From: Hoeflea sp.
GTDB taxonomy: Bacteria > Pseudomonadota > Alphaproteobacteria > Rhizobiales > Rhizobiaceae
Assembly: GCA_965216535.1 (NCBI GenBank)
Contig: OZ244175.1
Coordinates: 6,570,791 to 6,634,790, forward strand
Reading direction: 5' to 3'
Length of the DNA stretch: 64,000 nt
Below the pieces are notes generated by a model. It did not search any database. It was not told the origin of the DNA and was given only the letters and a program-made list of their open reading frames with translations. A program made the position numbers and the translations under genes. Below are positions 33,402-35,733 of this stretch, in pieces (the stretch's first letter is position 1; each line of letters starts with the position of its first letter).

Positions 33402-33923
33402 TCACTTCAGGTTGATGCGTTGCTGTACCTCGACAGGTGGAAAGGTAACGCAATCAACTGCATCAAAAAGCACTTCGAACGGTTCGAGAGGCTGTTCAAC
33501 CAGAGCCAGCGCCGCATCGCGATTATCGTCCGTGACTGCGGTTCCCAGTGTGCAATGCGGAACCCAGTTCTGCGGCCGATAGTGATCGTGGCAAAACCGA
33601 GGTTCTATCTGCTCGTGAAGTGATCGATGCAACCCTTCGAGTTCCGCCGCGTTCGCCGGTTTGGCCCACAGGATCAGAGGCGATGCGGAAAAGCTGCTGA
33701 GCGCTTCAAACCGCACACGCAAAGCGACCCGACCTGCGAAGACCGCATGTGCGACATCGGCAAGGGTGCTGGCTTCGACATCATCGTATATGGCGAGTGT
33801 GATGTGCGGTGGGTAGTGCATTGCAATCATCGACGGCGATGCTTCCCACTGTCCGACGCAATCCCAAAGGTCGCGCAACGGTGCAGCACTTGCATTGCTT
33901 GCGGTTATGCAGATTGCTTGCAA
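33402..33923 (-). CDS. 2H phosphoesterase (2'-5' RNA ligase superfamily)
   Basis: Two HxT motifs: PPHITL and VPHCTL. Confidence 0.85.
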   Translation of the reverse strand: MQAICITASNASAAPLRDLWDCVGQWEASPSMIAMHYPPHITLAIYDDVEASTLADVAHAVFAGRVALRVRFEALSSFSASPLILWAKPANAAELEGLHRSLHEQIEPRFCHDHYRPQNWVPHCTLGTAVTDDNRDAALALVEQPLEPFEVLFDAVDCVTFPPVEVQQRINLK

Positions 33924-33975: not shown

Positions 33976-34104
33976 CTAACGCATGTTCGGGACCTTGCCT
34001 TGCGATGAAACGGGTCGGTCCTTGAGCAAGGGACCGTCTGATGTCGAAGTGCAGGACGACATGGCTATTGCCGCCGCGACAATCAGCAGAATACGCAGAA
34101 TCAT
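33976..34104 (-). CDS. Micro-lipoprotein 1, 42 aa (not in ORF track)
   Basis: GAGGAGG SD, then MILRILLIVAAAIAMSS-C-TSTSDGPLLKDRPVSSQGKVPNMR-TAG; lipobox-like MSSC. Confidence 0.85.
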   Translation of the reverse strand: MILRILLIVAAAIAMSSCTSTSDGPLLKDRPVSSQGKVPNMR

Positions 34105-34148
34105 GGAAGCCTCCTCAATACACACGGCAGATCTGGGACAGCCGATTG

Positions 34149-34286
34149 TTATGTCAGATAGTCGTATCCATTCTGAACTTTGCCCTGCGTCGAGACGGGC
34201 CGGTCTTTCAACAACGGGCCATCAGACGTTGACGTACAGGAAGATAGGGCGATTGCGGCAACTGCAAACAGCAAAACACGTAACAT
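34149..34286 (-). CDS. Micro-lipoprotein 2, 45 aa (not in ORF track)
   Basis: GGAG SD, then MLRVLLFAVAAIALSS-C-TSTSDGPLLKDRPVSTQGKVQNGYDYLT-TAA; lipobox LSSC; paralog of 33976-34104. Confidence 0.85.
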   Translation of the reverse strand: MLRVLLFAVAAIALSSCTSTSDGPLLKDRPVSTQGKVQNGYDYLT

Positions 34287-34320
34287 CGCGGAATTTCTCC
34301 AAATTGGTGTCACACCCGGT

Positions 34321-35733
34321 TCAAGCCTGTCTCTCGACCTTTTGAGGCGTCTCGGTGATCGGCATTTGCAACTCGATCACCTCCGGCAAGGACAGAACAG
34401 CGATCTCCTGCGGATCCGCTACTCCTTCCAACAGATCGGTCCGGAACTCGACCTGAAGCGGGCCGTCATATCCCTTGCCGATCGCCTCTCGATAGGTATC
34501 TGCGGCCGCAATCAGTCGCGAGCCGAGCACCTTGTTGTGTTTCTCAAGTTTTGCCGAATAGTTGACCGCCGATCCGATTACGGTGATCTCCAGGCGGTTT
34601 TCCTGTCCAACCGCACCAAAGGCAACCTGGCCTGAAGCAACGCCAATACCGATGCCTGCCGCCTGGATCGGTCCCAGTTCCGGATCGTCAGCGCGCCAGT
34701 CATCAAGGTCACGCAAAATGCGCTCTGCCGCCTCAATGGCCTTGGCCGAACCGGCCGCTCGATCGCCGGTGCCGAATGTCGCCATGATGCCGTCGCCCAT
34801 GAATTTGTCGATGACCCCGCCGCAATCCTGAATGATCGGCACCACCCTGCTCTGGTAGCTAGAAAGCGTGCGCATGACCTCGGAGGCCTCCATTTTGGCT
34901 GCCATGCGCGTGAACCCGCGAATATCGGCAAACAGAATCGCCACCTGGCGGTTCTCTCCCTTGCCGGCCTCAAGCTGTTCCGCGCTCTCGCGGATGCCAC
35001 TGGCAATCGAGGTATCGAAAAAGCGCGACAAGTCTTTGGCCGCAACACCTTCGGTAGCCGCGCTGACCAACAGATTGTTCGACGCATTGACCACCAGGGT
35101 CAGCACGGCGGTCACCAGGAGAACCGACAGGATCTTGTCGATCTCGGCGCCGATCAGAATGGAATTCGACGTCAGATATTCGACATAGGAGCGGGTCAGC
35201 ATATTGTCGCCCGGGTCGATCCGGGTCACGTAGAAGATGACCGAGGCCCAACCGACCGCCGCGACCACGCCGGATACGATGACGAATCGCGATTCAAAAC
35301 GCAGCGCCCTCAAGGCGATGAAGATGAACACGTAAAGCAGCGTCGGCGCTTTGAGGATGAACGAGGCGGGCTGCATGTATTGAACATGGAAACTGATCAT
35401 CAGCCCATAAAGCAGTGCAAAGTCGAACAGGATCGATCCGTATACCGCCCAATGGGGTACTCGAAACCGAATCGACCAGATGAGGCCTATAACGCTGATC
35501 AGCATGTAAGCGCCGAGCACGTAAGGAACAGGTGAAAATGCCTCGTCCGGGCTTGTTTTCGGGCTGATCGCGTAGATCGATGAAAACAGGATGACGATGG
35601 TCAACTGGATCAGGCGCGCCATGATTTCATTGGCCCGCTCGCGCTCTGCAAGCGCGGTCTGGACACGTCCTGGCAACTGGTCGCGCCGGGGTCCCGGGCG
35701 AAAATGCCTCGTTACGAAATCAAATAGGGCCAC
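34321..35733 (-). CDS. Membrane-anchored class III adenylate cyclase
   Basis: Several N-terminal TM helices; LFADIRGFT, IDKFMGDGIM, GIGVASG, ITVIGSAVNYSAKLE; GGAG RBS before GTG. Confidence 0.9.
   Translation of the reverse strand: MALFDFVTRHFRPGPRRDQLPGRVQTALAERERANEIMARLIQLTIVILFSSIYAISPKTSPDEAFSPVPYVLGAYMLISVIGLIWSIRFRVPHWAVYGSILFDFALLYGLMISFHVQYMQPASFILKAPTLLYVFIFIALRALRFESRFVIVSGVVAAVGWASVIFYVTRIDPGDNMLTRSYVEYLTSNSILIGAEIDKILSVLLVTAVLTLVVNASNNLLVSAATEGVAAKDLSRFFDTSIASGIRESAEQLEAGKGENRQVAILFADIRGFTRMAAKMEASEVMRTLSSYQSRVVPIIQDCGGVIDKFMGDGIMATFGTGDRAAGSAKAIEAAERILRDLDDWRADDPELGPIQAAGIGIGVASGQVAFGAVGQENRLEITVIGSAVNYSAKLEKHNKVLGSRLIAAADTYREAIGKGYDGPLQVEFRTDLLEGVADPQEIAVLSLPEVIELQMPITETPQKVERQA

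Follow-up and report, generated by a model that had tools for sequence, protein, structure and literature searches.

Two tandem genes for putative micro-lipoproteins behind a six-helix class III cyclase gene in a Hoeflea-like subclade

MgrB and SafA, which act on PhoQ, and MzrA, which acts on EnvZ, are membrane-anchored peptides of fewer than 50 aa that target a signalling enzyme in its periplasmic or membrane region. None of the three is known to target a class III cyclase. KapB, a larger partner of a membrane sensor, is a folded protein of roughly 130 aa. According to PMC6011975, which cites Dartois et al. 1997, KapB is a lipoprotein needed by KinB of Bacillus subtilis, a six-transmembrane (6TM) sensor that lacks an extracellular domain and has only short outer loops. 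Among class III cyclases, 6TM anchors act as receptors, including receptors for lipids (PMC4821796, PMC12505454, PMC11606603). Entericidins A and B (EcnA/EcnB; Atu8019 in Agrobacterium tumefaciens) are very small lipoproteins, about 25-32 aa long once mature. Enterobacteria encode them in a tandem pair of paralogous genes, and the family is present in Alphaproteobacteria (PMC7296081, PMC10117765). None of the papers retrieved ties small lipoproteins to class III cyclases.

The locus described here lies in a 64,000-nt stretch of Hoeflea sp. DNA (the window). Four genes follow one another on its minus strand in the order cyclase, lipoA, lipoB and 2H phosphoesterase, with gaps of 34, 44 and 52 nt. 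The first (34321..35733, minus; PF00211) encodes a 470-aa class III nucleotide, probably adenylate, cyclase with a predicted N-terminal six-helix membrane domain; PDB adenylate cyclase catalytic domains are its closest solved relatives. The last (33402..33923, minus) encodes a 173-aa 2H phosphoesterase of the 2'-5' RNA ligase superfamily (PF13563, with a weak TIGR02258 match). The cyclase has the same design, 6TM plus catalytic domain, as Rv1625c/Cya and the mammalian mACs. The small genes thus adjoin, in the same direction, a 6TM signalling enzyme without an outer domain, which is the arrangement expected of a KapB-KinB-type system. However, KapB is unrelated in sequence, belongs to a Gram-positive bacterium and has a histidine kinase, not a nucleotide cyclase, as its partner. 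MgrB, SafA and MzrA differ in being anchored by a transmembrane helix rather than a lipid, and in being usually encoded elsewhere and induced by the system that they control. Compared with the entericidins, lipoA and lipoB show no sequence relationship, have a hydrophilic mature part without a predicted helix and are tied to a cyclase gene. The entericidins are spread widely across Proteobacteria, whereas the lipoA/lipoB family is limited to a few genomes.

lipoA (34149..34286, minus, stop codon included) encodes a 45-aa pre-lipoprotein of the A type, with a predicted 16-aa signal peptide, Cys17 and a 29-aa mature peptide (Cys17 to Thr45, coding part 34152..34238, minus). lipoB (33976..34104, minus, stop codon included) encodes a 42-aa pre-lipoprotein of the B type, with a predicted 17-aa signal peptide, Cys18 and a 25-aa mature peptide (Cys18 to Arg42, coding part 33979..34053, minus). 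Shine-Dalgarno (SD) sequences precede both, GGAGA at 34296..34300 (minus), 9 nt before the ATG of lipoA, and GAGGAGG at 34110..34116 (minus), 5 nt before that of lipoB. The signal peptides begin with a short basic n-region (R3 in lipoA, R4 in lipoB), followed by 11-12 uncharged hydrophobic residues and the lipobox, which reads L-S-S-C in lipoA (Cys17 codon 34238-34236) and M-S-S-C in lipoB (Cys18 codon 34053-34051). The two mature peptides have the core C-TSTSDG-x-L-[LF]-KDRPVS-x-QGKV-x-N in common, and after GKV they end in QNGYDYLT (lipoA) and PNMR (lipoB). The first-pass annotation of this DNA had reported two ORFs of 42 and 45 aa, each with an SD sequence, a hydrophobic signal and an S-S-C lipobox, together with mature peptides of 25 and 29 residues that differ in these tails, and we recovered all of these features on the minus strand. 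It had also described the genes as hidden. This holds for the first-stage ORF track, but not for the public protein collection, which already contains calls of both genes from NCBI and ENA assemblies, without names or accessions.

The 18 gene copies of the family that were read out in 10 loci all pass PROSITE PS51257 with its extra rules (a K or R among residues 1-7, then hydrophobic residues without charge, and the lipobox Cys at position 15-35), and Lgt and LspA are both encoded in the same genome (PF01252, 125 bits; PF01790, 246 bits). Because all copies fit the sequence rules and the processing enzymes are present, we consider it very probable that lipoA and lipoB are real lipoprotein genes. 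Weak matches in Pfam, NCBIfam and PHROG cover the signal and lipobox part only, and all of them are to lipoprotein families. AF2, run with the family alignment, predicts a helix at residues 2-15 only, corresponding to the signal peptide; the remainder is without secondary structure and has low pLDDT (44-55). With a GRAVY of about -0.8, the mature peptides are hydrophilic; they contain much Pro, Gly and Ser, and their net charge is near neutral in A (-1 to +1) and +2 to +3 in B. The products may be short peptides on a lipid tether, disordered until a partner induces folding. The residue at +2 after the lipidated Cys is Thr. By the Lol rule of E. coli, Thr at this position leads to sorting to the outer membrane, a rule that is not established for this bacterial group.

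The coding nature of the pair shows in its pattern of substitution. The first-pass annotation had counted 17 synonymous codon differences, 5 identical codons and 1 amino-acid change over a 23-codon core; comparing lipoA with lipoB codon by codon from SSC to GKV, we obtained exactly the same numbers, the replacement being T/S. Nei-Gojobori estimates for the two genes are 0.90 for pS and 0.04 for pN. Among 13 A and B sequences, the varying sites in 25 core codons amount to 9, 4 and 25 at the first, second and third codon position, respectively. Read in the sense frame, lipoA and lipoB agree at 23 of 25 residues; the best of the five other frames retains 17/24, and it is the antisense frame that has its third positions in common with the sense frame. 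The excess at third positions (25 vs 9 and 4) and the lower value of the best alternative frame indicate that constraint acts on the minus-strand reading frame. Comparison with the related loci L037, L035 and L036 gives pN of 0.00-0.03 and pS of 0.27-0.79 for mature lipoA, and pN of 0.00-0.02 and pS of 0.21-0.67 for mature lipoB. Between the window and L036, pN is 0.031 for mature lipoA, 0.018 for mature lipoB, 0.069 for the cyclase, 0.199 for the 2H phosphoesterase and about 0.10 for the signal peptides. The pN of the mature peptides thus does not exceed that of the cyclase and lies far below that of the 2H protein, so constraint on these peptides is no weaker than on the cyclase. The signal peptides evolve faster than the mature peptides, which is the usual pattern, and the mature peptide appears to be the constrained object. 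Purifying selection, claimed at first from the pair itself, is therefore well supported by its pS and pN, by variation at all third positions (25/25) and by the low mature-peptide pN across loci.

In the whole 7.9 Mb genome, 18 ORFs within the size limits of 25-80 aa combine an SD sequence, a charged n-region, a hydrophobic core and a lipobox, corresponding to ~0.0007 per 600 nt per strand. The remaining matches of 50 aa or less look like noise, and the lipoA/lipoB pair is far beyond chance.

A word-indexed search of 5.8 billion proteins returned 5 clusters with a single query and 12 clusters with the family profile, and a profile search of 1.84 billion representative proteins returned 3 true members and 4 spurious repeat proteins. 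The long repeat proteins P0010-P0013 were rejected as relatives, their score being that of a short motif summed over 7-10 repeats. The GTDB species genomes contain 4 loci, three titled 'MAG: Hoeflea sp.' and one 'MAG: Rhizobiaceae bacterium', and 241 million JGI metagenome records contain 1 locus. One JGI metagenome contig carries a sequence identical to lipoB, and a Hoeflea sp. MAG carries a variant that differs from it by one residue (98% identity). The 10 loci, some on Logan contigs, are the window and nine others, and all carriers of the family are metagenome-assembled genomes or short contigs. In 400 genomes of the same GTDB family, 4 congeners among them, only chance-level matches were obtained (best E 0.005). 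Scans of the peptides against Pfam, NCBIfam, PHROGs and PADLOC gave sub-threshold matches only, and a PDB profile search with them gave nothing. The first-pass annotation had suggested a homology search for a match to some described small lipoprotein family; none emerged from Pfam, NCBIfam, PDB or the representative proteins. Judged by their sequences, lipoA and lipoB represent a previously undescribed orphan family that appears to be confined to one subclade of a Hoeflea-like genus.

The A and B types are distinguished by their tails. The A-type tail, D/G-Y/F-D-Y-L-T/V/I, is acidic and aromatic, and the B-type tail, P/A-N-M/Q-R, is basic; each is kept in all nine other loci. This is the case even in L038 and L054, whose cyclases are about 81% or less identical to that of the window, with pS above 0.6 (0.62-0.64). 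Since both types retain their own tails across these diverged loci, the duplication is older than the whole carrier clade, in support of the initial proposal that it is old and that the protein sequence has been kept constant since. The codons of 17 of the 22 conserved core residues differ between lipoA and lipoB, and 13.6 differences are expected at full saturation with the codon usage of the window (P=0.09). Synonymous sites between A and B are thus saturated, which rules out recent gene conversion. We also considered an excess of synonymous divergence, as would result from selection against recombination between the copies, and rejected it because the difference between 17 and 13.6 is not significant. 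Besides A and B, the family includes a third type, C, with a different middle part, found as the first of three tandem copies in L038 and alone in L055.

The association with the cyclase gene was examined in the loci carrying both A and B, namely the window, L035, L036/L033, L037, L038, L034, L053, L054, L056 and the contig of P0019, the last of which is left out of the linkage count. In every inspected locus the A+B pair begins 27-34 nt after the cyclase stop. The four-gene row contains no terminator-like site, and all promoter-like sites found precede the cyclase gene; lipoA and lipoB most likely share one transcript with the upstream cyclase. The other flank is more variable. The 2H gene follows the pair in most loci and is absent from L038 and L054, where the far flank has been rearranged with the cyclase junction intact, by an IS transposase (DDE_Tnp_1_4, E 2e-152) in L038 and by another gene behind a hairpin in L054. 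The 2H phosphoesterase has an omega of 0.13-0.25, compared with 0.03-0.10 in its neighbours. Its homologues are sporadic: of 300 other genomes in the family, 4 have one, at 32-46% identity and each time in an unrelated context, and their neighbourhoods in other genera contain no cyclase and no small lipoprotein.

The cyclase itself was found in each of the 16 congeners searched, consistent with vertical inheritance. In twelve other species of the genus it is 74-80% identical and has differing flanks, and neither a small lipoprotein nor a 2H gene is found behind it. The cassette was therefore gained a single time, by the ancestor of a large-genome subclade. Across the 16 genomes, whose cyclases are 74-100% identical overall, hardly any variation is seen in the six-helix domain and its three short outer loops, with or without the lipoproteins. 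The invariant stretch covers window positions 35040-35620 (minus), residues about 40-230, and its loops, located around residues 57-69, 117-126 and 171-194, are SPKTSPDEAFSPVP, HxQYMQPASF and RIDPGDNMLTRSYV-YLTSNSIL. Such a constraint on the membrane domain seems unusually strong for a mere anchor, and conservation of this degree is as expected of a ligand-binding module (PMC4821796, PMC12505454, PMC11606603). As the loops are invariant, no signal of co-evolution with the presence of the peptides was seen in the 16 genomes. In the Rhizobiaceae MAG CAWUFE02 (L036:2554-3966, the same place as L033 and L042), codon 118 of the cyclase is an in-frame TAG where the window has CAA, and two ORFs are called. 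lipoA, lipoB and the 2H gene are intact beside this interrupted cyclase. The TAG may be a genuine nonsense mutation or may stem from an error in long-read assembly.

We propose, with a probability of roughly 0.4, that the products of lipoA and lipoB are paralogous, lipidated micro-lipoproteins acting as accessory envelope partners of the 6TM cyclase. The steps of this proposal, namely translation, co-transcription, lipidation, localisation and any effect on the cyclase, are all ones that we infer. The pre-lipoproteins would be directed by a Sec/SPase-II signal peptide, lipidated on the Cys of the SSC lipobox and cleaved to hydrophilic, unstructured peptides of 29 or 25 residues. These would sit tethered to the membrane on its periplasmic side, where they could contact the membrane domain or the short periplasmic loops of the cyclase, or relay an envelope cue, and the contact or the cue would tune the cyclic-nucleotide output of the enzyme. 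The common core would serve as the binding element, and the differing tails could give the members of the pair distinct roles. The A, B and C types would have arisen within the one subclade.

The accessory role is favored by the tight gaps, by the cyclase junction, which persisted while the other flank changed, and by the precedents of KapB-KinB, its functional model, and of 6TM cyclase anchors as receptors. Several findings argue against it. The membrane domain and loops of the cyclase vary equally little whether or not the peptides are present, and homologues of the 2H gene in other genera have unrelated neighbours. The twelve congeners that carry the cyclase without the cassette indicate that the enzyme clearly works without the lipoproteins. 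Class III cyclase loci number 29 in this genome, and only one of them has such small genes (0/28 others), so the arrangement is not a general design. If the peptides were anchored in the outer membrane, as the E. coli Lol rule would have it, a tether of ~25 residues could hardly reach loops at the inner membrane. The intact pair beside the stop-carrying cyclase of L036 and the C-type gene away from any cyclase in L055 also count against the accessory role, and in so narrow a clade, linkage to the cyclase may be simple inheritance.

It is comparably plausible that lipoA and lipoB encode real micro-lipoproteins whose function is independent of the cyclase. They would then be lineage-specific envelope, outer-membrane-vesicle or surface peptides, serving for example in cell-cell or host contact as described for Atu8019, and transcribed by read-through from the cyclase gene. 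On this explanation the cassette joined a pre-existing, unchanged cyclase, in line with the twelve congeners that lack it and with loops that are invariant either way. A C-type member that stands alone, a pair that is intact next to a cyclase with a stop codon, and a Thr at +2 that fits outer-membrane sorting by the E. coli rule all agree with it, as do the carriers, all of them MAGs labelled Hoeflea sp. or Rhizobiaceae. Small lipoproteins of Rhizobiaceae have been located both in OMVs and at the surface (PMC7296081), and annotation often overlooks them (PMC10117765). However, an independent role does not account for the cyclase junction being kept in every inspected locus despite two changes on the other flank, and no separate promoter-like or terminator-like site was found for the pair. 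It also names no partner that would explain an identical 23-residue core in two paralogues.

A more specific form of the accessory role, which we consider unlikely, would have the peptides serve the six-helix domain as gene-encoded ligands or regulators with a lipid anchor, the core binding the invariant loops and the tails acting in opposite or cooperative ways. In contrast, the known or proposed ligands of 6TM cyclase receptors are free lipids or quorum-sensing molecules, not gene-encoded lipopeptides. If true, this would be the first proteinaceous input described for the 'membrane anchor' of a class III cyclase.

An entericidin-like pair, made up of a lipopeptide toxin that acts on membranes and an antidote to it, is improbable. 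Two tandem paralogous lipoprotein genes of 40-50 codons do resemble the ecnAB design outlined in PMC7296081. However, PF08085 matches neither the proteins (E up to 10) nor the genome, while the control genomes of E. coli and Caulobacter were both hit. The mature peptides are unlikely to form pores as amphipathic helices, since they are hydrophilic and rich in Pro, Gly and Ser and AF2 predicts no helix in them, albeit at the low pLDDT given above. Furthermore, an identical core in both partners is not expected of a toxin and its antidote, and three copies are found in one genome.

Finally, it is very improbable that the two copies resemble each other because a non-coding DNA or RNA element was duplicated, or because of a gene on the antisense strand: antisense ORFs of 120 and 151 aa do overlap the region and one antisense frame keeps 17/24 residues, but such partial conservation is the outcome expected from the third positions in common, and the variation in the minus-strand frame (25/25 third positions vs 9 and 4), the SD, start and stop kept in 18 copies, the lack of an Rfam family match in the region and a repeat finder that did not pair the lipoA and lipoB DNA, the copies being too diverged, all speak against it. 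The antisense ORFs (33983-34635, plus; also over the cyclase 3' end) were rejected as genes for the same reason, their conservation being explained by the third positions of the sense frame.

Three further identifications were tried and rejected. LptM (YifL) is likewise a small lipoprotein; its conserved part, which includes G-P-L, directly follows the Cys that bears the lipid. PF13627 gives no match here, the Pro of D-G-P-L is not conserved in the lipoA/lipoB family (P, T, N, H, V or S among orthologues), and the spacing from the Cys is different. A Pycsar system places the cyclase beside an effector with a cyclic-nucleotide-binding domain and has a patchy, island-like distribution; in the present locus only the generic catalytic domain matches the PycC models, the small proteins and the 2H gene match nothing, and the cyclase occurs in all 16 congeners searched. 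A spanin (Rz1) was dropped because its defining features are missing.

Proteins of fewer than 50 aa are routinely missed, and few have evidence this clean: saturated synonymous divergence with an almost unchanged core in the paralogues, in a pattern that recurs in nine other loci. With this pair, the short list of micro-lipoproteins gains a new and unnamed family, one that is young, being one genus deep, and is strongly constrained already. If the peptides act on the 6TM cyclase, they would offer a tractable genetic handle on the signals perceived by class III cyclases through their membrane domains. Otherwise, they would remain good candidates for envelope or host-contact factors specific to this lineage, a group represented by MAGs only.

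The arrangement of the third type differs between the two loci in which it occurs. In the Hoeflea sp. MAG OZ252260 (L038:3702-4343, L038:4507-5889), C, A and B genes stand in tandem after the cyclase. The lone C-type member P0017 (L055:1884-2021) lies between a divergent gene for an SdiA-regulated domain protein and a convergent 527-aa gene, the latter without a Pfam match. The contig of L055 and the A+B locus L054 both come from run SRR32085973.

The initiation signals are conserved throughout the family, with an SD sequence and a start codon kept in all 18 copies. All A-type copies have a GGAG-type SD, and all B-type copies have GAGGAGG or, in the two most divergent loci, TGGAGG. At the lipoA start (34284-34289, minus), most relatives read GTG-ATA and start at the GTG, whereas the window reads GCG-ATG and starts one codon later. 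The start site of lipoA has thus moved in the window through a compensating pair of changes that preserves initiation.
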